Positions 14,808 to 63,467 of a DNA stretch of 64,000 nucleotides are shown here, piece after piece. This DNA comes from Actinomycetota bacterium (GTDB taxonomy: Bacteria > Actinomycetota > Actinomycetes > S36-B12). The stretch is taken from NCBI GenBank assembly GCA_005798555.1, contig SYJA01000003.1, forward strand, positions 2,626-66,625, read 5' to 3'. The notes below the pieces were generated by a model. It worked only from the letters and a program-made list of their open reading frames with translations. It searched no databases and was not told the origin of the DNA. Made by a program: the position numbers and the translations under genes. How positions within the stretch are numbered: position 1 is the stretch's first letter; the number at the start of each line of letters is the position of its first letter.

Positions 14808-15014
14808 GTATGTCCTCCTAAGTTCGAACGGCAGACCGCCTGCCGAGGGCGAGCCTAGGCGAAACAAATAGGACACCGCAGGTGAACAGAGCAGGTCGTG
14901 CGGGCCCGAAAGGATTCTATCGGCGCCGGAACCGTGGATCACTACTCTCGGCATGGGGTGGCAATCCGATGATTTGCGGGGAAAACAGCAGCCGATGTGA
15001 CCCGCGCCACTTTC

Positions 15015-15043
15015 ATTGACTACTAGCCTTATTGACTTACTAG
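15015..15043. promoter_or_regulatory. tandem direct repeat, possible operator upstream of the SBP gene
   Basis: attgactactag (15015) and attgacttactag (15031) in a 312-bp intergenic region. Confidence 0.35.
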
Positions 15044-15119
15044 AGATTCCCACCGGGCAACTTGGGCAGGTCCCTTGACGAGTCTTCCTCTTGCAGCGAG
15101 CCGTTATCTAGTCTTGCGG

Positions 15120-46773: not shown

Positions 46774-46806
46774 AAATGAGACTTGGCACGTGGTACAAAT
46801 AGCACC

Positions 46807-47961
46807 GTGAAATGGGTGGAAGATCCGCAGCACGAAGACCTCAGGTCCGGTGTCCGCCAAGTCTGCTCTGGTTTCACCGGCAGTTACTGGCGCGATCTTG
46901 AACCCGATACGTATCCGGCGCAGTTTGTTGAAGCCATCACCCAAGCCGGCTTCCTTGGCGCCTTGATACCCGAGGAGTACGGCGGTGGCGGAGCCACGCT
47001 GACGGAGGCCTCGGTGATCTTGGAGGAGATCGCAGCCTCAGGCGGCAACCCGGCTGCTTGCCACGCGCAGATGTATGTCATGGGTACCGTGCTGCGTCAC
47101 GGCAGCGTCGAGCAGAAACTGCAATACCTGCCGGAGCTCGCGGCCGGTCGGCTGCGCCTGCAGGCCTTCGGAGTTACCGAGCCAGGTGCGGGTTCGGAGA
47201 CCACGCGGATTAGTACCCGGGCCGAGAAGGTGCCCGGTGGCTGGCGAATCAACGGTCAGAAGATCTGGACATCGCGGGCCCTTTATTCCGATCTGATGCT
47301 GCTCTTAGCACGAACCACGCCTTATGAGGAGTGCGCGAAACCGACTGAAGGTCTCTCGACATTCTTAGTTGACATGCGCAACGCCGAAGGCATCACCATT
47401 AATCCGATCAAGACAATGATAAATCACAGCACTACCGAAGTTTTCTTCGAAAATGTCGTAATCCCTGACGCGGCATTAGTTGGCGAAGCTGGTAACGGCT
47501 TTCGCTACATCCTGGACGGCATGAACGCAGAGCGCATCCTGATTGCAGCTGAATGCATCGGCGACGGCAGGTACCTGCTCGAGAAAGGCGTCGACTATGC
47601 CAATCAGCGAATCGTCTTCGATCGCCAAATCGGCTCGAATCAAGGGGTTCAGTTTCCGCTGGCTAAGGCCTATGCCCAATTACGTGCGGCCGATCTGGTG
47701 CGTTTTGACGCAGCCGCTAAGTACGATGCGGGTAAATCATGTGCCACCGAGGCCAATATGGCAAAACTCCTTGCCTCCGATGCTTCATGGGCTGCCGCAA
47801 ACGCCGCAATGGATACCCACGGCGGGTTCGGATTCGCCGTCGAGTACGACATCGAAAGAAAATTTCGGGAGACCCGGCTCTATCAAGTTGCACCTATCAA
47901 CAACAACCTAGTTCTGGCCTATCTCGGACAGCATGTCCTTGGGCTGCCCAAGTCCTACTAG
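46807..47961 (+). CDS. acyl-CoA dehydrogenase
   Basis: IPEEYGGGG, AFGVTEP.AGS, NGQKIWTS, R.VFDRQIG.NQGVQF, THGG.GFA.EY.IER.FRE; start may be 46783. Confidence 0.9.
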   Translation: MKWVEDPQHEDLRSGVRQVCSGFTGSYWRDLEPDTYPAQFVEAITQAGFLGALIPEEYGGGGATLTEASVILEEIAASGGNPAACHAQMYVMGTVLRHGSVEQKLQYLPELAAGRLRLQAFGVTEPGAGSETTRISTRAEKVPGGWRINGQKIWTSRALYSDLMLLLARTTPYEECAKPTEGLSTFLVDMRNAEGITINPIKTMINHSTTEVFFENVVIPDAALVGEAGNGFRYILDGMNAERILIAAECIGDGRYLLEKGVDYANQRIVFDRQIGSNQGVQFPLAKAYAQLRAADLVRFDAAAKYDAGKSCATEANMAKLLASDASWAAANAAMDTHGGFGFAVEYDIERKFRETRLYQVAPINNNLVLAYLGQHVLGLPKSY

Positions 47962-47994
47962 CTCAACCCCCTATTTTTTGTGCAGTGTTGAGCG

Positions 47995-49437
47995 TCAGAT
48001 GGGCAGGCCAGGCCGGTCGACACCGACTATCTGGGCTCCGCAAAAGAACCGGAAGACATCCCGATCACCGTGGCCGCCCAATCCGCTGCCCCGCCAAAAA
48101 CTCTGCACCGACTCCGGGCTCAGGTCCAACAAACTGGTGCCATTGACTTTCACCTCACCGAATCTAATGCGGCGGGCCACCGCCATAGCCGCATCGATAT
48201 CAGTGCCGAAGACATAACCGGCCAGGCCATAAGGCGAGGAATTGGCGAGGTCAATAGCCACGTCGATGGGGCTGGTCGCGTGAACCGTGACCACCGGGCC
48301 GAATAGCTCATCAACGCAGAGTCCTTCAGGCGCGTCGGTTACTACCACTGGCGGCCAAAACCATCCGGGTAAATCCGGGGCGGTATGCACTTGGTGCGCG
48401 GTCGCGCCGCCGCGCACTAGACCGTCAACCCGAGACTGCAACTGTTCACGGTGGTCTCGATGCGCGAGCGGCCCCATTAACGCAGCCGGATCATCATGGG
48501 CCCCGATCACCACACCCCCCAGTTCCACCAGCAGGGCGCTAACAAGCGCGCGCTCAAGGGCTGGCGGTACGAAGATTTTGCCCGGCCCTTCGCACCATTG
48601 CCCATTAAGCTTGGTCATGCCGGTGGCGATGCTTTTCGCCGCCTGGTTGATATCCGCATCAGGCATGATGATCACCGGGTTATTACCGCCTAGTTCTAGT
48701 TGTACTGCCTTGAAGTCCGCGGCCGCGGCGATGGCGATCGCCCGCCCTGTGGTGACCGAACCGGTGAACGAGATACACCTAATGCGCGGATCGGTCGTTA
48801 ACTGAACGCCGACATCAGCACCGCCATGCACCAGCTGGAAAACCCCGCCCGGAAGCCCTGCTGCCGCGATGGCTTCGGCGAGCACATTGCAGCCAAATGG
48901 TGCCCGCTCCGGTGGCTTGAGAATTACCGGAGCCCCTGCTGCAAGTGCGTATGCGCACTTTTTTGCAGCCATCGCCGCTGGGGCATTCCATGGCACCAGC
49001 ACGGTGGTCGGACCCCAAGGAATACGAAGGATTTCTACCGGCCTATCGATCTCGCCGACCTGCTGGACTAGTACGCCGCTTCGCATCTGCTCGACCGCGT
49101 CGCGAAAGGATCCAGCCAACGAACCGCCAAATAGTCGGGCGATGGATATCACAACACCCGACCCCAATGACTCAGCCGCCCCGATCCGATCACCGCGTTG
49201 ATCCAACTCATCGGCCACGCGCAGCAGGGCCGCCGCACGGTCATCGATGCTCTGCAGGCGCCACGAACCGGCCTTATCGATTCGGTCCGCGGCCGCGATG
49301 GCGCGATCGACCTCGGTTGGATCCGTTTGGGCAACTTTTGCGATGAACTCACCGGTGGACGGGTTGGTCAGTTCGATCTCCACAGTCTGGCTTGGCAAAC
49401 ACCGCACCCCGTCGATTAGATCGAGTTGAGATTCCAT
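47995..49437 (-). CDS. aldehyde dehydrogenase
   Basis: VPWNAP, KPPE, FTGS, LELGGNNP, NGQWCEG, ELFGP, AN.SPYGLA. Confidence 0.9.
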   Translation of the reverse strand: MESQLDLIDGVRCLPSQTVEIELTNPSTGEFIAKVAQTDPTEVDRAIAAADRIDKAGSWRLQSIDDRAAALLRVADELDQRGDRIGAAESLGSGVVISIARLFGGSLAGSFRDAVEQMRSGVLVQQVGEIDRPVEILRIPWGPTTVLVPWNAPAAMAAKKCAYALAAGAPVILKPPERAPFGCNVLAEAIAAAGLPGGVFQLVHGGADVGVQLTTDPRIRCISFTGSVTTGRAIAIAAAADFKAVQLELGGNNPVIIMPDADINQAAKSIATGMTKLNGQWCEGPGKIFVPPALERALVSALLVELGGVVIGAHDDPAALMGPLAHRDHREQLQSRVDGLVRGGATAHQVHTAPDLPGWFWPPVVVTDAPEGLCVDELFGPVVTVHATSPIDVAIDLANSSPYGLAGYVFGTDIDAAMAVARRIRFGEVKVNGTSLLDLSPESVQSFWRGSGLGGHGDRDVFRFFCGAQIVGVDRPGLPI

Positions 49438-49438
49438 C

Positions 49439-50809
49439 TCAAATATTCTCAAAGTAGCGCTCGAGCTCCCAATCGGTCACCGCGCGCTGAAAGCACTCCC
49501 ACTCCCACGCCGCCGCTGACCCATACTGCTCGACGACTGCAGGTCCAAAGTTGCGCATGATGAACTCACTTGCGGTAAAGCGCTCCGCGGCGGCGCCCAG
49601 ATGTTTCGGGAACTGCTCGGTAGCCGACTTCACCTGGTACGCATCACCGGTGCGCTCCGGACCCGGATCAATATCGCGCTCAATACCGTCACCAACCGCG
49701 GCAAGGAGCCCGGCAATCGCCAGATAGGGGTTGATGTCGGCGCCCGGTACCCGCCATTCAACCCGCATTGATGCCGGGTCGGTGCCGAGTACCCGACATG
49801 AGACCGTGCGGTTGTCCACCGCCCAAGTTGCCCCGTGGCCGGCGAAGTCACCTGAATTGGTGCGCCGGTAGGAATTGATGGTCGGCGCGTACCAAGCCAT
49901 CAAATCCGGTGCGGTTTCCAAGATGCCGCCCATTACCTGACGCATTGTGTTGCTGATGTGCTGTGGTTCGTTATCGGACCACATTACTTGTGCCGCAGGC
50001 CCGGATCCCTCGAGATCGCGAAGTGACAAATGGATGTGCCCAGACGACCCAACGCCGTCGGCCTGTGGTTTTGGCAGGAAGGTAGCCGAGAGGCCGGCTT
50101 GCGCGGCAACATCCTTAACCGCCAACTTGAAAAGCACATGACGGTCCGCCATATCCAGGGCATCCCCGTAGGTGAGGTTGATCTCCCATTGCCCCAAGCC
50201 CCACTCACCCTGGCTCATCTCGACGTTCATCCCGGATTCGTCCAAAACATTGCGCAGGCGCCGGAAGAATGGTTCCCAATTGTTGACCTGCTGAACGGTG
50301 TAGTCGGAATGAATCAGGGTGCTTGGAGTTCGGGTGTGATAGCCCGCCTGCCGCAATCGGTCATAACTCTCACGATAAAGATGAAACTCTAATTCGGTGC
50401 CAACCCCTGCTGCTAACCCACGCTCAGCCAACGCGGAGACCTGTCGCTGCAGGATCCTTCGGGGGGTGATCTCCACCGGGGAACGATCATGCTCCTCGAC
50501 GATGTCGGCGAGCACAATCGCGGTGCCGTCAAGCCACGCCGCATTGATGAGAGTCGCCATATCCGGGATCAGCAGAAAGTCCCGCCAACCCGTATGCCAA
50601 CCTGCATACGCTGATTGGTAGCCAATGTCCTGTGGGAGATCCCAGCCAAATGTGCAGGCCGAGACCGCGATCCCGCGCTCCGCGAACTCGGCCAATCGCT
50701 TCGGCGCCAATCGCTTGCCGATTAGTCGTCCATGCATGTCAGGTGCAGCTATAATTACGGTGTCGAAGTCGCCGGCTTGCAAATCCTGCATGGTCAGCAC
50801 ATTCATCAT
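49439..50809 (-). CDS. glutamine synthetase-like gamma-glutamyl-amine ligase (second paralogue)
   Basis: DMHGRLIGKR, GTELEF, EMSQGEWGLGQWEIN, SSGHIHLS, NSYRR..GDFA, RVEWRVPGAD. Confidence 0.88.
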   Translation of the reverse strand: MMNVLTMQDLQAGDFDTVIIAAPDMHGRLIGKRLAPKRLAEFAERGIAVSACTFGWDLPQDIGYQSAYAGWHTGWRDFLLIPDMATLINAAWLDGTAIVLADIVEEHDRSPVEITPRRILQRQVSALAERGLAAGVGTELEFHLYRESYDRLRQAGYHTRTPSTLIHSDYTVQQVNNWEPFFRRLRNVLDESGMNVEMSQGEWGLGQWEINLTYGDALDMADRHVLFKLAVKDVAAQAGLSATFLPKPQADGVGSSGHIHLSLRDLEGSGPAAQVMWSDNEPQHISNTMRQVMGGILETAPDLMAWYAPTINSYRRTNSGDFAGHGATWAVDNRTVSCRVLGTDPASMRVEWRVPGADINPYLAIAGLLAAVGDGIERDIDPGPERTGDAYQVKSATEQFPKHLGAAAERFTASEFIMRNFGPAVVEQYGSAAAWEWECFQRAVTDWELERYFENI

Positions 50810-51567
50810 CTGGTCAGCCACCCGCCATCAACCGCAAGTTGCGTGCCAGTTATGTACGATGCGGCATCTGAAAGCAGGAATGAGGCGGCTCGCGCGATAT
50901 CTTCCGGCTCGCCGACGCGCGGCACTAATAATCGCTGACTCATAAAAGCCATGGCTTCCGGTCCGGTGATGTCGCCGCCCGTAAACCGAGTGTTGATCGG
51001 TCCCGGTGCGATGGCATTGACCCGAATGCCCATTGCTGCCAACTCAACGGCCAAAGCCTTCGTGAGCATCTTTACCCCACCTTTGGATGCGTTGTAGTGC
51101 ACCTGGCAATTGCCACTCGAGGAGACCACAACTTCGGCTTCAACGGTTGTCATATTGACCATCGCACCACCATTTCGCATGACCCGAGATGCAGCCTGGG
51201 CTACGATAAATGGGCCTTTCATGTTGATGTCAACAACAAAATCCCACTCCTCATCGGATACGGTGTCAAGGCCGGACATCGTGACAACTCCAGCGTTGTT
51301 GACGATCAGGTCGAGTCGTCCAAAGGTGTCAAGGACGTCGGCTAGTGCCTTTTCAACCGCCACTCGGTCGCGAACATCGGCAACTAATACCGCAGCAGAA
51401 CCGCCTGCATCAGTGATGAACTTCGCTGTCGCTTCGGCAAGTTCCATCTTGATATCGACGCAGGCGACGGAGGCTCCGTCATCAGCCAGTTGTCTTGCGA
51501 TGGCCCGCCCGATACCTGAGCCAGCTCCGGTGACGAACGCCACTTTGCCACTATGGTCAATGATCAT
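50806..51567 (-). CDS. short-chain dehydrogenase/reductase
   Basis: TGAGSGIG, NNAG, YNASK, PG, VDGG; ATGA overlaps at both ends. Confidence 0.9.
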   Translation of the reverse strand: MIIDHSGKVAFVTGAGSGIGRAIARQLADDGASVACVDIKMELAEATAKFITDAGGSAAVLVADVRDRVAVEKALADVLDTFGRLDLIVNNAGVVTMSGLDTVSDEEWDFVVDINMKGPFIVAQAASRVMRNGGAMVNMTTVEAEVVVSSSGNCQVHYNASKGGVKMLTKALAVELAAMGIRVNAIAPGPINTRFTGGDITGPEAMAFMSQRLLVPRVGEPEDIARAASFLLSDAASYITGTQLAVDGGWLTR

Positions 51568-52307
51568 GATCTGCTCCCATTTTTCGATTCTGAAATAAGC
51601 CAATTGAAAATAGGATCAACGCCGGCATGCATTTCGGGGTGCCACTGAACGGCGAGCACTTTGACTTCAGTGGATTCAACGGCCTCGATCGTGCCATCTG
51701 ACGCCCAAGCCACGATTCGCAGTCCTTGTCCAGGTTCGTCGATAGCCTGATGGTGGTAACTGTTGACCGCCGCGTTGCCCTCGTTATCCACCTCGGCGCC
51801 GAGTGCCACCCTCAGCATCGACTCCGCAGCAACCGCGACCTTGTGCCTTCGAGTCGAACGGTACTCCTGCGTGTCAGCATGTGAGAAGCCATCAACTTCG
51901 GGCAGGTGCTGTATCAAGGTGCCACCCCGCGCGACATTCACCACCTGGCAGCCGCGACAGATGGCGAGAATCGGGATTCCGCTTTCAATTGCCGCGGAGA
52001 CCAATCCGAATTCGAATTCATCGCGTTCCCGGTCATGCTGCGTGGATTCAGGCACCGGCTCCATGTTGTACCGGTGTGGATCGACATCCTCGCCGCCACT
52101 GAGCAGTAATCCGTCAAGGCGCGTGACAATGTCACGTGGGTTCACTGACCGAGGAATCATTACCGGTATTCCGCCGGCGCCACTCACCGCTTCGCAATAG
52201 TCAGCGAACACCCCCCACAGGTGCGCACCGTCGATACCTTTGGGGACGACCCCTAATCCACTTGCCTCGATAACCCGAGTGGTGATCCCGATGAGGGGCG
52301 CTCTCAT
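51564..52307 (-). CDS. peptidase C26 gamma-glutamyl hydrolase (PuuD-like)
   Basis: PLIGIT, SGGEDVDP, AICRG.Q, VNSYHHQ, AVQWHPE. Confidence 0.9.
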   Translation of the reverse strand: MRAPLIGITTRVIEASGLGVVPKGIDGAHLWGVFADYCEAVSGAGGIPVMIPRSVNPRDIVTRLDGLLLSGGEDVDPHRYNMEPVPESTQHDRERDEFEFGLVSAAIESGIPILAICRGCQVVNVARGGTLIQHLPEVDGFSHADTQEYRSTRRHKVAVAAESMLRVALGAEVDNEGNAAVNSYHHQAIDEPGQGLRIVAWASDGTIEAVESTEVKVLAVQWHPEMHAGVDPIFNWLISESKNGSRS

Positions 52308-53026
52308 GAGGAACCCGTCTCGCGAATTATTGCGTGTAGGTTCCGCAGGGTCTCGTCCATGTGCGCCCGAGCCGCCGAGGCCGCGGCCACCGCGTCACCA
52401 TCAACAATCGCTTCATAGATGGCGGTGTGTTGCTGGCGGGTTACCTCGACTCGCTGCTCATAAGGCAGGTTGTCGGTCGGCAGGAACAATTCAGCGCGCG
52501 CTCGCCGTGATGCCTCGGTCAACCGCTCATTGCTGGCCGCTGCTGACACCGCGGCATGGAATTGCCCATCGGCTTCACGAAATGCACCGTATGAAAATCC
52601 GTCACTGGTAAGCACGGCGCCTGGCAGTGCTGCGATCGCAGTTCGCATCGCCTGCAAATCCGAGTCCGAGCGCCGCAGCGCAGCCAACGAACAGATGTGC
52701 TGCTCAATGGCCGATCGAAAGTCGATTAACTCCTCCATATCCGGGAGGTTTTCCCGAAGGAGTTCACGCCAAACTGAGACCGGGGTACTCGGCTCAACTA
52801 CGAAGCTACCGCCGCGAGCACCCCGGCGAGTGACCAGGTAGCCCTCGGCTTCTAGATGCGCGATACCCTCACGCACCGCCTGCCGGCCGACCCCTAACTC
52901 AATTGCCAGTTGGCGCTGGGCCGGGAGTCGGTAGCCCACGCCCCATTCACCGCAGGCGATGCGCTCACGCAGGTAGGCCGCAACCTCCTGGCCCGTCCGC
53001 ACCGTCTGCAACTGTCTCATATCCAT
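52304..53026 (-). CDS. GntR/FadR-family regulator with FCD domain
   Basis: RLPAQRQLA.ELGVGRQAVRE, RRG..GGSFV, R..IE, D..FH, QH..I. Confidence 0.9.
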   Translation of the reverse strand: MDMRQLQTVRTGQEVAAYLRERIACGEWGVGYRLPAQRQLAIELGVGRQAVREGIAHLEAEGYLVTRRGARGGSFVVEPSTPVSVWRELLRENLPDMEELIDFRSAIEQHICSLAALRRSDSDLQAMRTAIAALPGAVLTSDGFSYGAFREADGQFHAAVSAAASNERLTEASRRARAELFLPTDNLPYEQRVEVTRQQHTAIYEAIVDGDAVAAASAARAHMDETLRNLHAIIRETGSS

Positions 53027-53063
53027 TGGTGCGCACTATGAACCATTAGGATCACGGTGTCAA
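53025..53063 (-). promoter_or_regulatory. sigma70-type promoter with overlapping FadR-like inverted repeat
   Basis: Minus strand TTGACA(53063-58)-N17-CATAGT(53040-35), 8 nt before ATG; TGGT-N11-ACCA repeat spans the -10. Confidence 0.6.
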
Positions 53064-53125
53064 TCCCAAAATGGCCGGCGTTCTGCAGGTGGGCGGAACA
53101 AGATCAACCACCCGCCCTAGAGTAG

Positions 53126-53977
53126 ATGCGTGAGGTACCGGTGCTAACCCCTTTCTTGCTGCCCCTCCTCGGCCTCGTTGTCACGTTCGGCCTCGGTTGG
53201 TCGGTCGCAATGCTGCTAGCCAAGCTCGAGGCAGCGCGCGGACTGCTAGCCAAGCGTGAGGGCTCTCTCGTCGCCGACGGCGCGCAGGGTGTCCTGGGAT
53301 TCATTGGGGGGGCCTCCGCATTTCTCATCGGCGTTCTAATGCTCGCCTCGGTCGATCATTTCAACGCAACGTCTCAGGTCGCCAATGAAGAGGCGATCGC
53401 GTACTCAGCAGCGTTTCGATCCTCAGTGGCGCTATCGGATCCTGCACGCCAGATCGTGCAGCGGGATCTGGTGTGCTTGATGCGGTCGATTGCAACCGAC
53501 TCGTGGAATGCCGGGTCCCGTGGTGATCTGACTGGGGCTCGCAACTCGAACGCCTGGCTGGCGAGGACGGTCTCGAATTTGGGCACGCTCGGGCAGCAGC
53601 CGGCCACGTCACTCGACACGCTCGATGCGGTGGAGTCGGAACTTCGGGAGGCCGCCAAGTTCGGCCAGCATAGGCTGCTGGCTGGGGAGTCGGTTCTTCC
53701 GCTGGCGATGTGGGCGCTACTCTTTTTGAGCCTGCTAGTCCTCACATTTCTCATGACGCTCATGATGCGTCCATACCCGCTTCTGCTGGCTTTATGTCTC
53801 GGGTCAACTTTCATCGTGAGTACAGGCATGGTCTTTGTGCTGGTTGCGTTCGCTGAGCCCTTCGACACTAACACCGGTGTCTACATCAGTCCGGAGGCGC
53901 TGGAGGTCGTGTTGCTTTCCGCGGAGAAGACACAGCCGGGCGCGGCGTGGGCTTCGTGTGAGCGTCTGAGCCCGTAG
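53126..53977 (+). CDS. membrane protein (DUF4239/bestrophin-like)
   Basis: Two N-terminal TM helices, A...EA, R......LP..MW, two C-terminal TM helices, PF.....ISP. Confidence 0.6.
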   Translation: MREVPVLTPFLLPLLGLVVTFGLGWSVAMLLAKLEAARGLLAKREGSLVADGAQGVLGFIGGASAFLIGVLMLASVDHFNATSQVANEEAIAYSAAFRSSVALSDPARQIVQRDLVCLMRSIATDSWNAGSRGDLTGARNSNAWLARTVSNLGTLGQQPATSLDTLDAVESELREAAKFGQHRLLAGESVLPLAMWALLFLSLLVLTFLMTLMMRPYPLLLALCLGSTFIVSTGMVFVLVAFAEPFDTNTGVYISPEALEVVLLSAEKTQPGAAWASCERLSP

Positions 53978-53984
53978 CGCTCGC

Positions 53985-54472
53985 CGACTGGTCGTGATGG
54001 GGATACCCACCCGCTGCTATCAAATGGTGGAGCGAGGGGTTCAAACGGCCCATACTCAGTCTGCACCTGGCGAAAGTGGTCGCGCGCCCGATACTGCTCA
54101 TGCTCCCATCACTTCGGGCAAATGTTCCATGAGGTGCAATCGCATGATATCGACGCCCGGTGCAATCACGGCGCCCGAGCGCAGCCAGGACGCTGGTCAG
54201 CGCATACATTCCGGCGGAGATATCAGCGACTGCGCAGCCTCCCTTGCTCATTCCCTCATCGCCTGGCACCGAGAAGGCGCCAGCTAGCGACGCCTGCAGC
54301 AGGCGTTCGTCACCTGGGTTGCGCGGATCCATCGCCACCGACTGCTTGCCCACATTCGCCCAGACGAAGAAGGCCAAGTTGCCTTTCACTAAGGAGTCGT
54401 AGTGCCGTGCGAAATAGCCTGTTTGACCGGGACAACCACGATGCCGGCATGGGGCGCCGAGGATTCAGTCAC
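53985..54472 (-). pseudogene. CaiB/BaiF (class III) CoA-transferase remnant with several deletions and frameshifts
   Basis: Ordered fragments: P.AGI.VV..KQA; FARHYD.....FVWAN.GKQSV.MD; K.GC.VADISAGMYA...LAAL; H.IAP.G.F...DG; only ~490 bp of a normally ~1.2 kb gene. Confidence 0.75.
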
Positions 54473-55184
54473 GGGCCAGTTCCAGTAGTTGGATGCCAGC
54501 GATATCTTTCATGAACCACTCAACCAAGGCATCGCAATTCGCTCGAAGTTGCGCCCCCGCCTCGCCGATGTCCCCGAGGACTTCAGCCGCCGACGTATGA
54601 CTTGGTATGTGGTCTGGACCGATAGCCGCCCAGCCACTTACCAGCCCAAGATCAGCCTCGGGATGGAATTGGGTGCCCACCGCGCGGCCGGATCGAAACA
54701 GCTGAACGGCACTTGGGGTACTCGCCAACAACTGGGCGGACTCCGGGATGACCATGCGATCCTCGTGCCAGGTGAACCAAGGCCCGGCCGGAATCGGCAG
54801 CACCTCGGCTCCTGAATTCAGGTAGATAAGGCCAATCTCGGCTGCACCGGTAGGCGCCGGCTCGACCTGGCCGCCGAGGGCTTCGGCAAGGAGTTGACCG
54901 CCAAAGCAGACACCAAGGTAGGGGATGTCCAGGTCCACAAGTTTTGCAATGTGCTCGATCTCCGGGCCCACCCACGCGCGAGCCGATGTCTCGTAGGCAT
55001 TGGCGAAGGAACCGAAAGCGATCACCGCGTCGTATTCACCGGGGTCGGGGAAGTCAAGATTGGGCGCCGCCGGATCAGCAAGCACTATGTGCTGCTCGGT
55101 CTGGACGCCACGTAGTGCCAATATTTCACCGATCATTCCTGGTGCAGCTTCGGGCTCATGACTGATTAGCAGCACTCGCGCCAT
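54465..55184 (-). CDS. class I glutamine amidotransferase-like hydrolase
   Basis: LGVCFGGQLLA.ALGG.V, EIG, WH.D, QFHPE; directly downstream of a GS-like gene. Confidence 0.88.
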   Translation of the reverse strand: MARVLLISHEPEAAPGMIGEILALRGVQTEQHIVLADPAAPNLDFPDPGEYDAVIAFGSFANAYETSARAWVGPEIEHIAKLVDLDIPYLGVCFGGQLLAEALGGQVEPAPTGAAEIGLIYLNSGAEVLPIPAGPWFTWHEDRMVIPESAQLLASTPSAVQLFRSGRAVGTQFHPEADLGLVSGWAAIGPDHIPSHTSAAEVLGDIGEAGAQLRANCDALVEWFMKDIAGIQLLELARD

Positions 55185-56534
55185 CTAGATAACCCCTCGA
55201 TAGCGTTTGATCTCCCACTCACTTACCTGATCCGGCGGGCCCTGCCCGTGCTCCGCGAACTCGGCAGCCTCACGGCGCTGCATGAAGACGAAGTTATCGA
55301 CAAACACATCCCCATAGGTGCTGCGGGTGAATTCACTATCAAAATTATCTATCGCACCTGTTAGCTCAGTTGGCAGCCGCTGCCATCCTTCATCGGCATG
55401 CGGGTCTCCGACCACCTGATCCATCAGGTCATAAGCATGCTCGAGCCCGTCCATGCCAGCCGCCAGACACCCGGCTAACACTAGGTACGGGTTAGCGTCG
55501 GCCGCCGCCCAGCGGGATTCCAGACGGTTGGCCGCACCCGCTCCAGTGATTGACCGCACCCCGACCAGCCGGTGATCAAGGCCCCAGGTGACCTGGGTCG
55601 GCGAGAAGGAGTAGTCCTGCAGGCGCTTGTAGCCGCTGACGGTCGGGGTCATCACCAACTGCAACTCCATATGGTGCCTCAACAGCCCGGTTAGGTACTT
55701 GCGCATCAAGGAGTTGCCAATAATCGAATCCTCATCGGCTAGCGCGAACGCATTGACACCGTCACGTTCAAGTGACTGATGTATATGCATGCCGTTACCG
55801 GCTTCTTGGAGAAACGGCTTGGCCATAAAGGTGGTGTTGATTCCATGTTTCTTGGCCACCGTACGCACTATGTACTTGAAGTAGACCGTGGCATCCGCCA
55901 TCTCGAGCAGGGGACCGTACCGCAGATTAATCTCGGTCTGGCCCGGGCCATATTCCACGTTCCAGGCCTCAACTTCAATACCGGTCTTGCGAAGGGACTC
56001 GCAGATATCGTGCATGAAGTAGTTCATCTCTGCGCCACGTGCTATCGAATAGCAGTTTATGTCGTCATATAACGGCTCCCACTTCTCGGTGAAGAAGTGG
56101 CACTCGAGCTCGGTAGCACCATTTACTGAAAACCCGGCCGCCGCAAACTTCGCCAACTGCTTCTTGAGCATGTTGCGAGCGTCCATCTGGATTGGCGCAT
56201 TGGTACCCGGGTGCACGGTGTCGCAGATGACGATGGCCACGCCCTCCGTCCAGCCGGCCACCCGAAAGCTAGACAGATCGGGCACCGCGTGCATATCGGG
56301 AAAGCCATCCTCCTCATTGACCCAAGGGGTGGCGAAGATGAAGCAAGTTGGATCCCAACTGTAGACGACATTTGCGATCGCGTAACCCGAGCCTCGTAGG
56401 AACTGCCGCACCGGAATTCGCTTACCGCGCGGGATGCCCCAGGTGTCAACGATCACACACTCCACCGTGTGAATGCGATGCTCCTCGCAAAGCGCGGCAA
56501 CCCGGTCGCGTTCAGAGGCATCCCAGCCGGACAT
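55185..56534 (-). CDS. glutamine synthetase-like gamma-glutamyl-amine ligase (third paralogue)
   Basis: DTWGIPRGKR, ATELE, EYGPGQTEIN, FMAKP, GNGMHIHQS, SGYKR...SFSP, RLESR...DANPYL. Confidence 0.88.
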   Translation of the reverse strand: MSGWDASERDRVAALCEEHRIHTVECVIVDTWGIPRGKRIPVRQFLRGSGYAIANVVYSWDPTCFIFATPWVNEEDGFPDMHAVPDLSSFRVAGWTEGVAIVICDTVHPGTNAPIQMDARNMLKKQLAKFAAAGFSVNGATELECHFFTEKWEPLYDDINCYSIARGAEMNYFMHDICESLRKTGIEVEAWNVEYGPGQTEINLRYGPLLEMADATVYFKYIVRTVAKKHGINTTFMAKPFLQEAGNGMHIHQSLERDGVNAFALADEDSIIGNSLMRKYLTGLLRHHMELQLVMTPTVSGYKRLQDYSFSPTQVTWGLDHRLVGVRSITGAGAANRLESRWAAADANPYLVLAGCLAAGMDGLEHAYDLMDQVVGDPHADEGWQRLPTELTGAIDNFDSEFTRSTYGDVFVDNFVFMQRREAAEFAEHGQGPPDQVSEWEIKRYRGVI

Positions 56535-56661
56535 CAGGCCTCCATTCCAGGTGCCAATTGCACTTGATCGATCATTAATACCGGGCTAAATGTAGTGTTC
56601 CACTTGGCCGGCAACGGGCATTCCAGCATTTTTCCATCGTATTTGGCGAGTAGGGAGACAA

Positions 56662-57636
56662 ATGCGAGCCGTCATCTTGACCGCACCGGGTACACCGCTC
56701 GGCATCCAGGAGGTGCCGACGCCGACCGCAGATCCGGGCGGGGTTGTTGTTGACGTACTGGCCTGCGGGGTCTGCCATTCGGATCTGCACGCGGCCGCCG
56801 GCGACTACCCGACCGCACTGCCTATTACCTTGGGCCATGAGGTTGCAGCCATGCATCCAAAGCTTGGCCCGGTCTTGGTTTATGCCTGCTGGGGTTGTCG
56901 CAAACCAGACTGCTGGGCCTGTTCCTCGAAGCAAGAGATGATCTGCCCCAATGCCACCGAGGCCGGGCTTTTTCGCGATGGCGGGTATGCCGAAAAGATG
57001 TTGGTACCGGACGAGTACTACCTGATCCCCATCGGCGACCTTGACCCGGCGCGCACCGCGCCACTGGCGTGCGGTGGCCTCACTGCTTACCGAGCCGTAG
57101 ATCACACGCTGGCCACCTTGGCTGCCGCCCCACATCCCCGGGCCCTTGTTATCGGCGCCGGCGGGTTGGGCCAATTCGCCCTGCAATTCGCCAAGATTCG
57201 CTCGGCTGCCCAGGTGGTCGTTGTTGATGCCGCACCGGAGAAGCGTGCCCTCGCACTAGCCCTCGGCGCGGACGCTGCCGTAGCACCCGGTGAAGTCGAG
57301 GGCACCTTTCATGCGGTGATCGACTTTGTCGGAGCAGAGCAAACTTTGCAGACCGCACGTGACCACGTGGCGCGCCAGGGGATCGCGGTCGTGGTTGGGC
57401 TCTATGGTGGCGCCATCCCGTTCGGCTTCGGATTGGTGCCGCATGAGGCCAGGTTCATGTCATCAATTTGGGGCACCCGCGACCAACTTGCTGACCTAGT
57501 TGCGTTAGCGCAGCAGCACGACCTGCACTCCGAGATCGAGGTGGTTGCGCTCGAGGACGCCCAGTTGGCCCATGACCGACTGCAGCGCGGCGAGGTTTCC
57601 GGCCGATTCGTGATCGTCCCCGGGGCACCCGAGTGA
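56662..57636 (+). CDS. zinc-dependent alcohol dehydrogenase (MDR)
   Basis: CGVCHSD, GHE, four-Cys structural Zn loop, APLACGGLTAY, GAGGLG; GGGAG RBS. Confidence 0.92.
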   Translation: MRAVILTAPGTPLGIQEVPTPTADPGGVVVDVLACGVCHSDLHAAAGDYPTALPITLGHEVAAMHPKLGPVLVYACWGCRKPDCWACSSKQEMICPNATEAGLFRDGGYAEKMLVPDEYYLIPIGDLDPARTAPLACGGLTAYRAVDHTLATLAAAPHPRALVIGAGGLGQFALQFAKIRSAAQVVVVDAAPEKRALALALGADAAVAPGEVEGTFHAVIDFVGAEQTLQTARDHVARQGIAVVVGLYGGAIPFGFGLVPHEARFMSSIWGTRDQLADLVALAQQHDLHSEIEVVALEDAQLAHDRLQRGEVSGRFVIVPGAPE

Positions 57637-58862
57637 CGATCGAGTCTCTGCCCGACATCACAGATCCGGCGGTTTATGAACGCGGAATACCACATGCGAC
57701 TTTCGCTCGGCTAAGGCAGCAATCACCTGTTGCCGAACTCACTTATGCCGGCAAGCCTTACTGGGCGGTCACCCGCTACCGGGATCTGCTCACCGTCACC
57801 CGCGATGCATTCACCTACTCCAGCGCCAAGGATTTCGTCAATCTTTGGGATCTAACCGAGGAGGCCAAGGCCGTCCGCCGCTCGATAATTGAAACGGATC
57901 CGCCGGAGCATGTGCGCCTTAGACGGCTCGGCATGCCAGCCTTCACCGGCCGCCGGGTGCGTTCCTACGAGGACGCAACCCGGGCAATCACGGTTCAAAT
58001 CCTCCAGCAGGCTCTTCGGCAGGGCGACATTGACGTCGTACATTCCATTTCCGCACCGCTGCCTATCCGGGTCATCGTCGATATTTTGGGGGTGCCCGCG
58101 TCGGATACCGACTTCATGGTGCAGTTGAGCGATGAGCTAGTTGACGGCGTCGACCTCCCGGCAGCTGCCTATGGCAATGTGACGCCACTTGAACTACTGC
58201 CATTTAACTCCCCCGCCGCCCATGCCCTCTTCGAATATGCCAAGGATATCGGCGACAGGCGTCGCGCCGACCCGCACGATGACCTGGTCTCAACCCTCGT
58301 ACACTCAAAGGTCGACGGTGATCAGCTAACCGAGAATGAATTCGCGAACATGTTCCAGGTACTTGTTTTCGCCGGAAACGAAACCACCCGAACCGCTATC
58401 AGCAACGGCGTACAGCAGTTCATGCAGCACCCGGACCAGTTGGAGCTGCTCTATCAAAGACCAGAGCTGGTGGAAAATGCGGTCGAAGAGATCATTCGTT
58501 ATGCCACGCCTGTTATCCACATGCGGCGCACCGCCACCCGCGACACAGTACTTGCCGGTGTGCCGATCGCAGGTGGTGACAAAGTCGTGATCTGGTACGC
58601 GTCGGCTAACTTTGATGAAACGGTATTTAATACCCCACTGACCTTCGACATATCGCGTCCGGTGCGACCCAAGCAGGTCGCCTTCGGAGCCCAGGGCCCG
58701 CACCACTGCTTGGGGGCCCCGCTCGCTCGCCTTGAGATCAGGGTGCTACTGGAAGAACTGATCCGGCTGCGGGTTAGATTCACCGCCAACGGCGAGGCGG
58801 TGCGGACCCGCTCCAATTTCGTCAACGGAATCCTGAAGTTGCCCGCCCTTATTTCAACTTGA
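57633..58862 (+). CDS. cytochrome P450 (CYP124/125-like)
   Basis: DPPEH..LR, FAGNETT (I-helix), EEIIR, FG..GPHHCLG (heme Cys); GTGA overlap with ADH. Confidence 0.93.
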   Translation: MTIESLPDITDPAVYERGIPHATFARLRQQSPVAELTYAGKPYWAVTRYRDLLTVTRDAFTYSSAKDFVNLWDLTEEAKAVRRSIIETDPPEHVRLRRLGMPAFTGRRVRSYEDATRAITVQILQQALRQGDIDVVHSISAPLPIRVIVDILGVPASDTDFMVQLSDELVDGVDLPAAAYGNVTPLELLPFNSPAAHALFEYAKDIGDRRRADPHDDLVSTLVHSKVDGDQLTENEFANMFQVLVFAGNETTRTAISNGVQQFMQHPDQLELLYQRPELVENAVEEIIRYATPVIHMRRTATRDTVLAGVPIAGGDKVVIWYASANFDETVFNTPLTFDISRPVRPKQVAFGAQGPHHCLGAPLARLEIRVLLEELIRLRVRFTANGEAVRTRSNFVNGILKLPALIST

Positions 58863-60447
58863 ACCGCTGCAGTTTGCCAGTTGCTGTCTTCGGGAGTTCG
58901 TCAACGAACTCAATCTCCCGCGGGTATTTATAAGGTGAGATGGCGGCCTTCACGAAACCTTGTAACTCATGTACGAGCCCGTCGGAGGCGGTCGCGTTAG
59001 GGGTAAGGACCACGAACGCTTTTACGATCATCCCCCGTGCCTCATCAGGCTTACCGACTACCGCAACCTCCTGAATGGCAACATGTCCCATGAGTGCGGA
59101 CTCCACTTCAGGTGCGGCGATGTTGTAACCACTCGAGACGATGATGTCGTCGGCCCGAGCTTGGTAGAAGAAGTACCCATTTTCGTCCTTGATGTAGACG
59201 TCGCCGGTCACGTTCCAGCCAGCACGCACATAGTCGCGCTGCCGATCGTCATTTAGGTAGCGGCAGCCGGTTGGCCCTTTGACGACAAGGCGCCCGGGCT
59301 GCCCTGGTGGCATTGGGTTGAAATCGTCATCAACCACATCCGCGAGATACCCTGGCACCCCCTTACCTGTCGACCCCGGCACGATCTGCGACCCGGTGGC
59401 AGAGATGAACACGTGCAGCATCTCGGTGGCACCGATGCCGTCAACCAACGCCTGCCCGGTGGCCGCATGCCAGGCCCGCCAAGTGGGCTCGGGCAGGGTT
59501 TCCCCGGCCGAAACGCAAACCCGAAGGCTGGACAGATCTACCTCCCCGACACTTGGCAGCATGGCCCGATACGCGGTCGGCGCGGTGAAGAGGCAGGTGA
59601 CCCGATGGCGCTCAATGGCTTTCAGGAGCAGCGGCGGGGCTGCTGACTCGAGCAACAGGGAGCTTGCTCCAAATCGCAGCGGGAATACCAGCAATGCGCC
59701 CAGCCCGAAGGTGAAGGCAAACGGCGGGCTGCCCGCGAAGACATCTGCGGGCGTTGGTTGCACTATTGACGCGCAAAAAGAGTCAGCAATCGCCAGCACG
59801 TCTCGATGAAAATGCATGGTTGCCTTAGGTTTTCCGGTGGTGCCGGATGTGAATGCCAGCATGCAGACATCATCAGCGGCCGTGTCCACCGGCACGTGAC
59901 TACCTGCGGCACCAATCACCAACTGGTCTAGATCATTTGCATGCGTGCTGCCATAGGTCACTGTCACACCGGGAAAATTGGACACCGCAGCCCATTCATC
60001 GACGAAACGGTGGTCAACAAGGGCGAACTGCACCTGCGCGATGTCGACAATTTTCTCCAACTCCCCGGCGCGCAGCAATGGCATCGTGGTTACCGCCACG
60101 GCTCCGACGCGAATCACTGCCAGCCAGGTGACCGCCAGCCAAGGGTTGTTCGGCCCGCGCAGCAGCACCCGATTACCGGGCACTACCCCCAAGCCCACCA
60201 GCACATTCGCGGTCCTTTGCACCCGGTCAACGAGTTGGTCGTAGGTCCAAGACTGCTCCCCATCAAGGAGGGCGCAGCCCTGGCCGCCAAATCTGGCTAT
60301 CGAACCGTCCAGCAGCTCGGCCGCGCAATTAAGTCGATCGGGATAGCGCTCGGTCAACCAGGCTTCGTTGAACTCGGGCCACTGATCAGCCGGGGGGAGG
60401 TTGTCGCGGGTAAATGAGTCAAGGTGCGCAGATGGGGTCAAGCTCAC
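58849..60447 (-). CDS. aryl-CoA ligase, 2-aminobenzoate/benzoate-CoA ligase family
   Basis: SAH.D.F.RDNLPP.DQWP N-terminus, FTSGTTGKPKATMHFH, AFTFGLG, SAGE, DGIGATEM.H.F, YKYPR, TGKLQRF. Confidence 0.85.
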   Translation of the reverse strand: MSLTPSAHLDSFTRDNLPPADQWPEFNEAWLTERYPDRLNCAAELLDGSIARFGGQGCALLDGEQSWTYDQLVDRVQRTANVLVGLGVVPGNRVLLRGPNNPWLAVTWLAVIRVGAVAVTTMPLLRAGELEKIVDIAQVQFALVDHRFVDEWAAVSNFPGVTVTYGSTHANDLDQLVIGAAGSHVPVDTAADDVCMLAFTSGTTGKPKATMHFHRDVLAIADSFCASIVQPTPADVFAGSPPFAFTFGLGALLVFPLRFGASSLLLESAAPPLLLKAIERHRVTCLFTAPTAYRAMLPSVGEVDLSSLRVCVSAGETLPEPTWRAWHAATGQALVDGIGATEMLHVFISATGSQIVPGSTGKGVPGYLADVVDDDFNPMPPGQPGRLVVKGPTGCRYLNDDRQRDYVRAGWNVTGDVYIKDENGYFFYQARADDIIVSSGYNIAAPEVESALMGHVAIQEVAVVGKPDEARGMIVKAFVVLTPNATASDGLVHELQGFVKAAISPYKYPREIEFVDELPKTATGKLQRFKLK

Positions 60448-60477
60448 CGCGGTGTCATCTCCCTGGGATCGCAATGA

Positions 60478-60512
60478 GAAAGGGGCGGGCTCATCAAGCA
60501 CCCGCCCCTTTC
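60478..60512 (-). terminator. strong hairpin terminator after the APC permease
   Basis: gaaaggggcggg ... cccgcccctttc perfect 12-bp stem. Confidence 0.75.
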
Positions 60513-60526
60513 CTTTTCGCAAGTGG

Positions 60527-62068
60527 TTAGCTCACGAAGTTATGCACCGCGTCGTAGTTCTCACTCTTCTTGCGTGTTGCGCCCACGATTAGGCCCACCA
60601 CGAAGAGCACGAATGGCGACAGGACAAGAATCCAGCCGGTCACGTTCATCTCCCATGGACCACCCTCGCCGGCGGAGGTGCCGGAGAACAGGTTGAAGCG
60701 GCTCATCAGCATGTATTCGCCGATCGCCAACCCGATGATTGCCAAGATTGGCGCAATCAGGGTGTTCCAGGGCCGAGTGTCTTCCTTGGTGCGACGGAAG
60801 TAAACGATCACCGAGATACTCACCATGATTTCGGTGAGCACGATGGCCAGTACCGCAACCGCGCCGAACCAGAAGAACATATGAACGATCGGGTCCAGAT
60901 TGAACAGGATGAAGATGACCGTGATCGCTACCGCCAAGATACTGACCACGATGGTCGCAATCCACGGTGCCTGGGCCCTGTTTGTGCGATCTAGTACCTT
61001 AGGCAGCACACCCGCGCGTCCCATGGCAAAGAAATAGCGCGCCGCCGAGTTCTGCATGGCGAGGCCGCCGGCGAACAGTGAGGTCAAGATGATCCAGCCG
61101 AAGAGTTCGCTCATCCAGGCGCCCACGTAGGTGGTCGAGGCGTTGAAGAGCACCGCCGAGGGATCAGAAAGTGGCACCCCATCGATTGCCGTCAGCTCAA
61201 ACACCTTGTTGGCGATATCGGTGGCACCAAGGCTGGTGACCAACCCAAGACCCACGATCGCGAATAATGCGGTAATCAAGATCACCGAGATATAGGTGGC
61301 CTGAGGTACCGTCTTCTTCGGATCCTTGGACTCCTCACCGTAGATAGCGGTTGCTTCGAAGCCAATGAACGAGGCGAGCGCAAAGGCGAATGCGATGCCG
61401 GCGCCACCGGTCAGGCCACCTTCGAAGATGGAGGCCGGGCTGAATGAAGCCCCGAGGTTTATGCCTTCGGGCCCACCGTTTATCAGAGTCGCAATCCCCA
61501 CGATGAGCAACGCGATGATCTCAATCGAGAGCAGGACGCCGAGCAACTTGGCACCGATATCAACCGATGCGGCCGACAGGATGAAGATCAGCGCAATGAT
61601 GACGAAGGCGTAAACCCACCACGGCAGGTCTAGGCCAAACTTCGCGGCGAACTGAAACTTCATCTGACCGGAGATGAAACCGAGGATGGCCCACATCACC
61701 GTGATGTAGGCAACGAGTGAGGCAAATGCAGTTCCAACACCTGGCACGATCCCTAGGCCGCGGCCCACATACGCAAAGAAGGCACCGGTGTTGGTTACGT
61801 GGTGGCTCATAGTCGCGTAGCCAACGCTGAACAACAGCAGCACGATACCGACCGCGACATACATACCCGCGGCACCCGCGCCGTCGCCGGCGCCTATTGC
61901 GACCGGGAACGCCCCCGAGAGCCCGGCCAAAGGTGCTGCTGCTGCAACAACGAAGAACACGATGCCGTAAAGGCCGAGCGTGCCCTTCTTAAGACTCGTC
62001 TGTTTGGTCTTTGGGTCGCCAGCACCGAGGTGCTTATCAGATTCCGGCAGATGCTCTCTTTGGGACAT
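60527..62068 (-). CDS. APC-family amino acid/amine permease
   Basis: FFVVAAAAPL, GAFFAYV..GLG, SFIGFEATAIYGEESKDPK, ARY.FAMGR.G.LP; ~12 TM helices; GGAGG RBS. Confidence 0.92.
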   Translation of the reverse strand: MSQREHLPESDKHLGAGDPKTKQTSLKKGTLGLYGIVFFVVAAAAPLAGLSGAFPVAIGAGDGAGAAGMYVAVGIVLLLFSVGYATMSHHVTNTGAFFAYVGRGLGIVPGVGTAFASLVAYITVMWAILGFISGQMKFQFAAKFGLDLPWWVYAFVIIALIFILSAASVDIGAKLLGVLLSIEIIALLIVGIATLINGGPEGINLGASFSPASIFEGGLTGGAGIAFAFALASFIGFEATAIYGEESKDPKKTVPQATYISVILITALFAIVGLGLVTSLGATDIANKVFELTAIDGVPLSDPSAVLFNASTTYVGAWMSELFGWIILTSLFAGGLAMQNSAARYFFAMGRAGVLPKVLDRTNRAQAPWIATIVVSILAVAITVIFILFNLDPIVHMFFWFGAVAVLAIVLTEIMVSISVIVYFRRTKEDTRPWNTLIAPILAIIGLAIGEYMLMSRFNLFSGTSAGEGGPWEMNVTGWILVLSPFVLFVVGLIVGATRKKSENYDAVHNFVS

Positions 62069-62177
62069 GTTTCCTCCGCGGATGTCCGCACTCGGTCATA
62101 CGGGGCCGAATGATGTACTGATCCTTGGGTTTACCGGGCGTTGAGTCAAGCCAAAGTCCGGTGTTTCCTGATTTTTT

Positions 62178-63422: not shown

Positions 63423-63450
63423 TGACCCAGCGTAGGGCACAAATCCTATT

Positions 63451-63467
63451 TGTCAACACCGTTGACA
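63451..63467. promoter_or_regulatory. palindromic operator / back-to-back -35 boxes of a divergent promoter
   Basis: TGTCAAC-acc-GTTGACA, giving TTGACA on both strands. Confidence 0.6.

Follow-up and report, generated by a model that had tools for sequence, protein, structure and literature searches.

The Pseudomonas 'pip' pathway is a gamma-glutamylpiperidide route. In the Ipu system of Pseudomonas sp. KIE171, a permease, a ligase resembling glutamine synthetase (GS), a cytochrome P450 (P450) by which the gamma-glutamyl amide is hydroxylated, a hydrolase resembling amidotransferases, and dehydrogenases for the alcohol and the aldehyde work together; ipu clusters have also been annotated on plasmids pTC1 and pTC2 of Paenarthrobacter aurescens TC1, pTC1 having in addition a coenzyme A (CoA) ligase (as far as the accounts in PMC6776027 and PMC1713258 extend). 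A gamma-glutamyl ethanolamine route has been assigned to the GlnA4 cluster (SCO1610-1615) of S. coelicolor, predicted in Chromohalobacter salexigens and supported by proteome data in Phaeobacter sp. MED193, according to the passages devoted to it in PMC6529630 and PMC10132767. The Gulosibacter pipA and bioI P450s are described, in the relevant sections of PMC9477822, with an adjacent reductase and with the GS genes GMOLON4_438/3052, which the authors read as nitrogen assimilation. Here we compare these systems with a region of a 64,000-nucleotide (nt) stretch (the window) of contig C13 of the actinobacterial genome G000 (GCA_005798555.1, contig SYJA01000003.1), in which two gene sets, module 1 and module 2, each carry a GS-like ligase (GS1 and GS2, respectively) and a putative glutamyl hydrolase.

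We consider it rather probable that the region holds two independent gamma-glutamylation modules for amine catabolism that adjoin only in this genus, module 1 being glutamyl-ethanolamine-like and module 2 being Ipu-like with unrelated parts. A preliminary description of the stretch had proposed an actinobacterial version of the Ipu logic. Ipu, Puu and GlnA4 already exemplify the strategy, and since an annotated ipu cluster from an actinobacterium has been published, the general architecture is not new; what stands as new, within the published accounts covered, is the enzyme set of module 2. A literature search over main texts returned no study of a cluster combining a GS-like gene, a CYP125-like P450 and a zinc-dependent alcohol dehydrogenase (Zn-ADH). 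Genes were called from an open reading frame (ORF) list and a Pfam scan, and NCBIfam models were applied to 15 proteins. All genes named in the preliminary description were recovered at the coordinates it gave, together with a CoA-transferase remnant, a bestrophin-like gene, two flanking acyl-CoA dehydrogenase (ACAD) genes and two further GS-like modules on the same contig, which it did not contain.

Module 2 is one conserved unit. Scanning of one genome per species gave 75 loci, 59 of them with a GS2 orthologue of at least 69% identity, and the counts that follow refer to informative loci, i.e., those with enough flanking DNA. The Zn-ADH gene adjoins GS2 and is divergent from it in 52/52 loci, the P450 is present in 45/47, and the class I glutamine-amidotransferase-type hydrolase (GATase) lies directly after GS2 in 54/55. 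A full-length family III CoA-transferase comes after the GATase in 49 of the 53 informative loci, with ACAD1 directly after the CoA-transferase in 38 of 48, and the APC permease was found in 37 of 40. The AMP-forming acyl-CoA ligase (AMP-ligase), present in 17/33, is therefore an accessory part; ACAD2 was observed in 16/29. The linkage of the P450-ADH pair to the GS-like and GATase genes, which the preliminary description had asked to be checked in other genomes, thus recurs in nearly all orthologous loci, and its reading of module 2 by the logic of ligase, P450, glutamyl hydrolase and permease is the best available. The co-location is beyond chance, because it is conserved across genomes and not on account of statistics within the window.

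GS2 was detected in 13 of 41 related genomes, and the P450 of the window (P450-W) in 12 of these 13 and in 0 of the other 28. Outside the genus, ACAD1 was detected in all 4 genomes with GS2 and in 0/25 others. ACAD1 had been considered as a mere syntenic housekeeping neighbour; this was dropped, since outside the genus its phyletic pattern is that of GS2. The link of ACAD2 to GS2 is looser than that of ACAD1, and ACAD2 also lies near P450, GS and GATase genes in loci L136 and L161. The exception to the co-occurrence is of the type seen in a metagenome-assembled genome (MAG) of the same genus (L016, 7361-8852), where P450-W is down to two short minus-strand remnants and an unrelated plus-strand P450 of 398 amino acids, 26% identical, stands in its place, which looks like a non-orthologous replacement.

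The association recurs in distant lineages, with the genes arranged differently. In Solirubrobacterales the ADH gene is divergent from the ligase gene, and a GATase, a Rieske ferredoxin, a P450 and an APC permease are nearby. Among Acidimicrobiales, L107 has an operon of ADH, GS, P450, class III aminotransferase and aldehyde dehydrogenase (ALDH), and L087 has ADH, P450 and a full-length CoA-transferase; the Zn-ADH is kept in both orders. The best match in the plasmid collection for both GS2 (37%) and the P450 (46%) was the same 4-kb stretch of Mesorhizobium loti pML2037, where a Zn-ADH, an alpha/beta hydrolase, a P450, a reductase, an APC permease, a GS-like gene, a C26 hydrolase, an ACAD and a CaiB-type CoA-transferase were found, with P450, reductase, permease and ligase as co-directional neighbours. 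This counterpart (L084, 246527-265777) adjoins a gene of the sulfate-exporter family, and its ACAD, next to which the CaiB-type CoA-transferase is again found, is annotated as 3-sulfinopropanoyl-CoA desulfinase; this hints at a sulfur-bearing amine as the substrate in Mesorhizobium.

To assess the ligases, GS1 and GS2 were aligned with E. coli GlnA and PuuA (E. coli numbering). Both keep E129, E131, E212, E220, H269, H271, R321, R339, R344, E357 and R359. These metal, ATP and glutamate ligands are also kept in GS0, a further ligase of the same contig, in the ligase of contig C90, in TC1 IpuC and in the Mesorhizobium homologue, and the partial ligase GS3 keeps them except for an N at H271. D50, S53, Y179 and the flap residue E327, which we take to be the ammonium-site residues of true GS, read A/V/C/F in GS2, S/T/D/F in GS1 and P/V/V/Y in PuuA. 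All four are likewise replaced in these five further ligases, GS3 included, and D/S/Y/E is retained in E. coli GlnA and in the genome's own GlnA (C96a). The loops bearing these residues are named in the part of PMC13740247 that treats them. Because the catalytic ligands are kept and D50/S53/Y179/E327 are replaced as in PuuA, GS1 and GS2 are, judged by their residues, putative gamma-glutamylamine synthetases and not ammonia GS, in line with the preliminary description.

A quick IQ-TREE phylogeny that included PuuA, the TC1 IpuC pair and ligases of ring-cleavage clusters placed GS2 in a clade with the ligases of Solirubrobacterales (support 99), L107 (95) and Mesorhizobium (83), apart from PuuA, the IpuC pair and the ring-cleavage-cluster ligases. 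GS1 was sister to GS0 (support 98), and this pair adjoined the TC1 IpuC clade (93 by the Shimodaira-Hasegawa-like approximate likelihood ratio test, SH-aLRT); PuuA formed a separate long branch. GS1 and GS2, which are 32% identical, thus fall in different clades. TC1 IpuC, itself annotated by homology as are the other TC1 proteins, is 33% identical to GS2 and 36% to GS1, and by tree and identity neither is orthologous to it. The best 120 homologues of GS2, all at least 53% identical, bear generic names only. The preliminary description had not recognised the locus as a characterised one, and no characterised pathway matched it at high identity, the values being 33-36% for the annotated IpuC and ~28% for the Ipu P450s.

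Table 1. Features of the two modules and their flanks, in window positions.
Feature	Position	Strand	Basis
ACAD1, acyl-CoA dehydrogenase, probable downstream module 2 enzyme	46783..47961	+	three ACAD Pfam domains
Module 1 aldehyde dehydrogenase (ALDH)	47995..49452	-	Pfam Aldedh, E 1e-102
GS1, GS-like gamma-glutamyl ligase (putative), module 1	49439..50821	-	Pfam Gln-synt_C
Module 1 short-chain dehydrogenase (SDR)	50806..51603	-	Pfam adh_short_C2
Module 1 C26 gamma-glutamyl hydrolase (putative)	51564..52307	-	Pfam Peptidase_C26, E 4e-64; PuuD-family similarity below cut-off
GntR/FCD regulator, first gene of module 1	52304..53026	-	Pfam GntR + FCD
Bestrophin-like membrane protein gene, between modules	53126..53977	+	Pfam Bestrophin-like, E 1e-12
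Decayed family III CoA-transferase remnant, module 2	53986..54460	-	fragments in several frames vs full-length relative
Class I glutamine-amidotransferase-type hydrolase (GATase), module 2	54465..55184	-	Pfam GATase; abuts GS2
GS2, GS-like gamma-glutamyl ligase (putative), module 2	55185..56534	-	Pfam Gln-synt_C
Divergent GS2/ADH spacer, 127 nt	56535..56661	.	sequence inspected
Zn-ADH, translationally coupled to P450	56662..57636	+	Pfam ADH_N/ADH_zinc_N; 4-nt overlap with P450
Cytochrome P450 (P450-W), CYP125/CYP124-related	57633..58862	+	motifs and solved-structure matches
AMP-forming acyl-CoA ligase, benzoate/anthranilate-CoA ligase family	58849..60522	-	Pfam, TIGR02262, solved relatives
APC-family permease, probable amine importer	60527..62068	-	Pfam AA_permease
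ACAD2, ACAD-fold (type 2/DszC/SfnB-like), first gene of ACAD2-APC-ligase operon	62178..63440	-	Pfam/NCBIfam, solved relatives

Three further proteins of module 2 have intact motifs. The Cys-His-Glu triad of the GATase is present (GVCFGG...HPE), both the catalytic and the structural zinc ligands are visible in the Zn-ADH, and P450-W has the I-helix AGNETTR and the heme-cysteine motif FGxxGxHxCLG. The genes for the AMP-ligase, the APC permease and ACAD2 run convergent toward the P450. None of the 15 proteins scored above a curated NCBIfam cut-off, so no substrate was named in this way. The AMP-ligase, previously called an aryl-CoA ligase, keeps that name at the family level, its best solved relatives being anthranilate- and benzoate-CoA ligases, and loses it at the level of the specific model (352 bits against a cut-off of 375 for the benzoate-CoA ligase family TIGR02262). 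The permease is weakly similar to the ethanolamine permease family (81 bits, cut-off 382). ACAD1 has generic solved relatives and received no specific assignment from NCBIfam; the best solved matches of ACAD2 are 5gj7 and 5z8t.

Module 2 shares the permease, ligase, P450, (putative) hydrolase and dehydrogenase logic of Ipu, but its parts are different. GS2 lies in another clade, P450-W is far from the TC1 ipu P450s in the tree (27.7-28.4% identity, outside their clade), and nothing in the pTC1 stretch matched the GATase at E 1e-5. The P450-coupled Zn-ADH, the family III CoA-transferase and ACAD1 set it apart as well, and there is no cluster-encoded ferredoxin or reductase, those genes being on contig C90. 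With the E. coli Puu system (PuuA, PuuB, PuuC, PuuD, PuuP) the region has in common a ligase with the ammonium-site residues lost, a C26 hydrolase, an ALDH and an APC-type importer; however, the Pfam scan found no PuuB-type oxidase dependent on flavin adenine dinucleotide in 46783-63440, and oxidation here would fall to the SDR in module 1 and to the P450 and Zn-ADH in module 2. The mycobacterial and Gulosibacter PipA/MorA systems for piperidine, pyrrolidine and morpholine also have an actinobacterial small-amine P450 beside a GS-family gene, although those clusters carry their own reductase and ferredoxin, a likeness drawn from their published descriptions and not from sequence.

From the gene content, the intact motifs, the conservation, the co-occurrence and the clades observed, we infer the chemical steps of module 2, their order and the type of substrate as follows. 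An alkyl- or cyclic amine would be imported by the APC permease and joined to glutamate by GS2. P450-W would then hydroxylate the carbon chain of the gamma-glutamyl amide, with electrons supplied by a ferredoxin and a ferredoxin reductase whose genes lie elsewhere in the genome, and the coupled Zn-ADH would oxidise the new alcohol. The class I amidotransferase-type enzyme would strip the glutamate, and the acid would be converted to a CoA thioester, ancestrally by the family III CoA-transferase and here by the AMP-ligase, which is proposed for this step because the CoA-transferase gene has decayed. The thioester would be dehydrogenated by ACAD1 and possibly by ACAD2. An omega-amino acid or dicarboxylate intermediate would fit, because ADH and P450 are tightly coupled, L107 has an aminotransferase and an ALDH, and the relatives of the CoA-transferase are of dicarboxylate type. 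Our guess for the substrate is a C4-C6 alkyl or cyclic amine.

Relative to L001, the CoA-transferase remnant has four internal deletions of 71, 168, 100 and 236 nt. The stretch 53342/53344-54480 was reproduced without difference in contigs of three other runs, which share a study with the probable source, so that the same population was sampled. At two of the gaps, a contig of a related organism from another study is longer, by 100 and 400 letters, and in the related MAG locus L002 the CoA-transferase copy is also truncated. A small ORF (53886-54389) was rejected as a real gene, being part of the decayed CoA-transferase. The CoA-transferase resembles formyl-CoA transferase, YfdE and SUGCT-type dicarboxylate transferases far more than racemases. 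The AMP-ligase may make the CoA-transferase dispensable in this organism. The bestrophin-like gene beside the remnant was found, among the 75 loci, only in L001, L002 and L015.

The main mechanistic rival of this scheme concerns the carbon that is attacked. P450s commonly N-dealkylate, and if P450-W hydroxylated the carbon beside the amide nitrogen, the carbinolamide would yield glutamine and an aldehyde; the amidotransferase would then regenerate glutamate as a glutaminase, and the aldehyde would be oxidised, CoA-activated and dehydrogenated, the whole amounting to an ATP-driven, oxidase-free deamination in which the amine nitrogen passes to glutamine. A hydrolase that is a generic class I GATase with an intact glutaminase-type triad, and not of the C26/PuuD type, is consistent with such a route, and a CoA-transferase or CoA-ligase followed by ACADs suits a nitrogen-free acid. 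However, a Zn-ADH coupled to the P450 and kept in 52/52 loci fits a stable alcohol better than an aldehyde, the L107 trio with its class III aminotransferase and ALDH suggests an omega-amino acid product, and the nearest solved P450s are terminal (omega) hydroxylases. IpuF-type hydrolases, moreover, are also described as amidotransferase-like in what PMC6776027 / PMC1713258 report of them. We regard dealkylation as unlikely.

A second alternative removes the P450 from the amine pathway altogether: the ADH-P450 pair, the AMP-ligase and the ACADs would be an omega-/beta-oxidation set for a lipid, a terpenoid or an aromatic acid that merely lies beside an unrelated, polyamine-type GS2-GATase pair. 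The affinities of the proteins give some ground for it. The best solved match of P450-W is CYP125MRCA, a reconstructed ancestor (8e-98), followed by CYP124 (3e-68) and CYP125 (3e-65), which are lipid and steroid hydroxylases, and the ligase resembles benzoate- and anthranilate-CoA ligases. P450s are usually placed in a family at 40% or more identity to a named natural member; the relation of P450-W to the natural CYP124 and CYP125 was judged by E-values. A P450 pattern scan gave 78 loci, in which a GS-like gene was counted within 8 kb. One was found in 16 of the 78: 14 of the 29 loci whose P450 is at least 40% identical to P450-W, and 2 of the 49 below that value. The other 47 of these 49 more distant homologues, which sit with ACAD and SDR genes, would thus be in keeping with a lipid route.

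The position of P450-W itself argues for the amine pathway. In a FastTree phylogeny of 99 rows, it falls in a clade of 31 rows (support 97). The distance to a GS-like gene is at most 3 kb in 21 of these rows and at most 8 kb in 6 more, and the other 4 have none, i.e., 27/31 are GS-linked. Outside the clade, 64 of 68 rows have no GS-like gene, and the 4 linked rows include the two distant TC1 ipu P450s. P450-W did not fall among P450s of lipid or steroid context (ACAD, SDR and no GS-like gene), and its subclade holds the same lineages as the GS2 clade. The divergent ADH-P450 / GS2-GATase layout (P450 45/47, ADH 52/52) and the strict co-occurrence of P450-W with GS2 across genomes also speak against a chance neighbour, as do L107, with co-directional ADH, ligase and P450 genes, and Mesorhizobium, with P450, reductase, permease and ligase likewise in one direction. 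A lipid, terpenoid or aromatic-acid route is, in our view, distinctly unlikely.

The genome's only Fer4_15 ferredoxin, together with a ferredoxin reductase, is encoded on contig C90, inside a second GS/GATase/P450 cluster whose GS-linked P450 is 41% identical to P450-W. This cluster (L174, G000:C90:1-16000) also holds TetR, ADC-like, luciferase-like, PurU-like, MarR, ALDH, LigB and FAH genes. In L021, L035 and L052, a C90-type module stands directly upstream of the module 2 APC permease.

Several observations weigh against the scheme preferred here for module 2. A lipid or aromatic-acid route would have a place for the AMP-ligase and the ACADs too, and the nearest solved relatives of P450-W are enzymes of lipids and steroids. 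Most relatives have retained the CoA-transferase, whose gene has decayed in this genome, and module 2 may therefore be partly degenerate in this organism. In the window, the Pfam scan detected no ferredoxin or reductase. No ALDH of this genome clearly belongs to module 2, whereas relatives carry ALDH genes beyond ACAD1. ACAD1 is on the same strand as an EamA transporter gene 10 nt away and may therefore be part of the operon of that gene. Because the genomes compared are related to one another, the conservation counts do not represent independent events. Finally, the P450 phylogeny is a FastTree one, and 11 of its source loci were picked for having a GS-like gene, so that the tree exaggerates the contrast; the unbiased count over 78 loci shows the same trend.

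Module 1 was confirmed as the tight operon of FadR-type regulator, C26 hydrolase, SDR, GS-like ligase and ALDH given in the preliminary description, with five minus-strand genes of which consecutive ones overlap by 4 to 40 nt. A ligase, an alcohol dehydrogenase, an aldehyde dehydrogenase and a gamma-glutamyl amidohydrolase are all found in this one cluster, as in the GlnA4 route, and module 1 is probably, by analogy, a self-contained cassette of the known glutamyl-ethanolamine type. GS1 would join an amino alcohol to glutamate, the SDR and ALDH would take the alcohol to the acid, and the C26 hydrolase would free glutamate and an amino acid. The hydrolase differs from that of the GlnA4 route, where SCO1615 is proposed, in the available account, to be of formylglutamate-amidohydrolase type, and the cassette has no transporter. 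Three of the proteins have their counterparts in the pTC1 ipu cluster, at 40-48% identity: the ALDH at 46% (maoB), the SDR at 47.5% and the C26 hydrolase at 40% (AAur_pTC10065).

The same four activities occur in a second module of the window, at 1245-5616, with GS0 (1245-2609, +), an ALDH (2652-4010, +), an SDR (4055-4834, +) and a C26 hydrolase (4906-5616, -). The best solved relatives of GS1 are 11zs (E 7e-87) and 5dm3 (E 2e-84), the latter of which we take to be a Chromohalobacter salexigens protein. GS0 is the closest relative of both in this genome (E 9e-124 with 5dm3 and E 5e-117 with 11zs), and because it is so much closer to them, GS1 is probably a paralogue for another amino-alcohol-like substrate. 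Genes 36-43% identical to GS1 (most 40-43%; GS0 itself 42%) were found throughout much of the family, most of whose genomes have one, and in several genomes of the order, and on their identity we read them as GS0 orthologues.

The preliminary description had treated the two ligases as one system, perhaps acting on two amine groups in sequence or on two related substrates. Were GS1 and GS2 to work on the same carbon skeleton, the short distance of about 2.2 kb between the modules, their presence on one contig in other genomes of the genus (e.g., G008, G003, G001 and G004) and the lack of an own ALDH in module 2 here, which the module 1 ALDH could make good, would all be accounted for. The wider distribution points the other way. 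Module 1 lies downstream of GS2 in only 7/48 informative orthologous loci. GS1 orthologues of at least 88% identity are present in 10 of 12 genomes of the same genus (G000 included), and of 13 genomes from the family's other genera, 3 have orthologues of 60-66%, in each case at another locus. In G016 a GS1-type cassette lies 1.4 Mb away from the GS2 cluster; the C26-SDR-GS-ALDH cassette is complete at other loci in G016 and G012, and in G018 the SDR, GS and ALDH are at another locus where a C26 match was not seen. Moreover, the ligases belong to different clades, a regulator gene is part of module 1 itself, and between the modules lie a decayed gene and one on the opposite strand. Module 1 is on this evidence independent of module 2, the proposed double-ligase system is not supported, and we give little credence to a single pathway. 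It is very improbable that the set serves biosynthesis, with gamma-glutamyl as the protecting or carrier group of a small metabolite: gamma-glutamyl carrier chemistry exists in natural-product pathways and P450s are common there, but an uptake-type APC permease is conserved with the set, the ADH, CoA-transferase and ACAD are of catabolic types, the 2.09 Mb genome has at least five other GS-like genes, three of them in catabolic-looking contexts, and the Pfam scan found no synthase, nonribosomal peptide synthetase or polyketide synthase, or export gene in the region.

Regulatory signals were also sought. Among the 24 runs listed for the sequence, none of RNA was found to hold it. A promoter-like site, a consensus match only, was found at 53063-53035, just upstream of the GntR/FCD gene; in the region as a whole such sites were rarer than in shuffled sequence, and the promoter and terminator scan performed no better than on shuffled DNA. 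In the spacer between GS2 and the Zn-ADH gene, an inverted repeat and a consensus promoter were looked for and none was found. The 57-nt divergent spacer between ACAD2 and an alpha/beta hydrolase gene contains a perfect palindrome, TGTCAAC-ACC-GTTGACA (63451-63467), the only exact match in the window, which by its sequence may be an operator or two overlapping -35 boxes. The genes that start there, divergent from ACAD2, extend past the window end (63498 onward; L164:2124-5019 = G000:C13:66123-69018) and comprise the alpha/beta hydrolase, a protein of 357 amino acids with no Pfam match, and the fourth GS-like ligase, GS3, which runs off the end of the contig and groups with ligases from Acidimicrobiales loci where genes of the P450 clade are also present. 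Elsewhere in the window, a minus-strand run at 11429-18370 encodes an ABC transporter with an NMT1-like binding protein, a sulfatase (15120-16688) and an Amidohydro_3 enzyme (16685-18370), and has the look of a cluster for the uptake of organosulfates or organonitrogen compounds.

The genome (96 contigs, 85.7% complete) has eight matches to the GS catalytic domain, two of them GlnA-type and four of the others on this contig, and six P450 genes. The closest loci in public genomes are those of freshwater actinobacterial MAGs, many labelled Nanopelagicales. Taking these observations together, we put forward tentatively, as a possibility that goes beyond the reading of two independent modules, that the P450-W clade arose from the CYP125/124 lipid hydroxylases as a family of oxygenases dedicated to gamma-glutamyl amides, and that module 2, with its permease, GS2, P450, Zn-ADH, class I GATase, dicarboxylate-type CoA-transferase and ACAD1, could be a complete, undescribed route by which a natural lake amine is oxidised while glutamate-protected and fed into CoA metabolism; in a bolder form, the oxidation would be a dealkylation, with the nitrogen leaving as glutamine. 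The lineage, with its eight GS-family and six P450 genes in about 2.1 Mb, might then be a specialist of dissolved organic amines.

Small amines are a large and poorly traced share of the dissolved organic nitrogen of lakes, and the organism is a member of an abundant group of uncultured freshwater actinobacteria. Its genome is small and has nevertheless kept eight GS-family genes. If module 2 works as proposed, it would be a conserved catabolic unit in at least 59 related loci, and the labels 'glutamine synthetase' and 'glutamine amidotransferase' would mislead annotators of genes of this type. It would also give a function to a P450 clade that otherwise resembles lipid hydroxylases, and would mean that the Ipu-type strategy has been assembled more than once from unrelated P450s and hydrolases.

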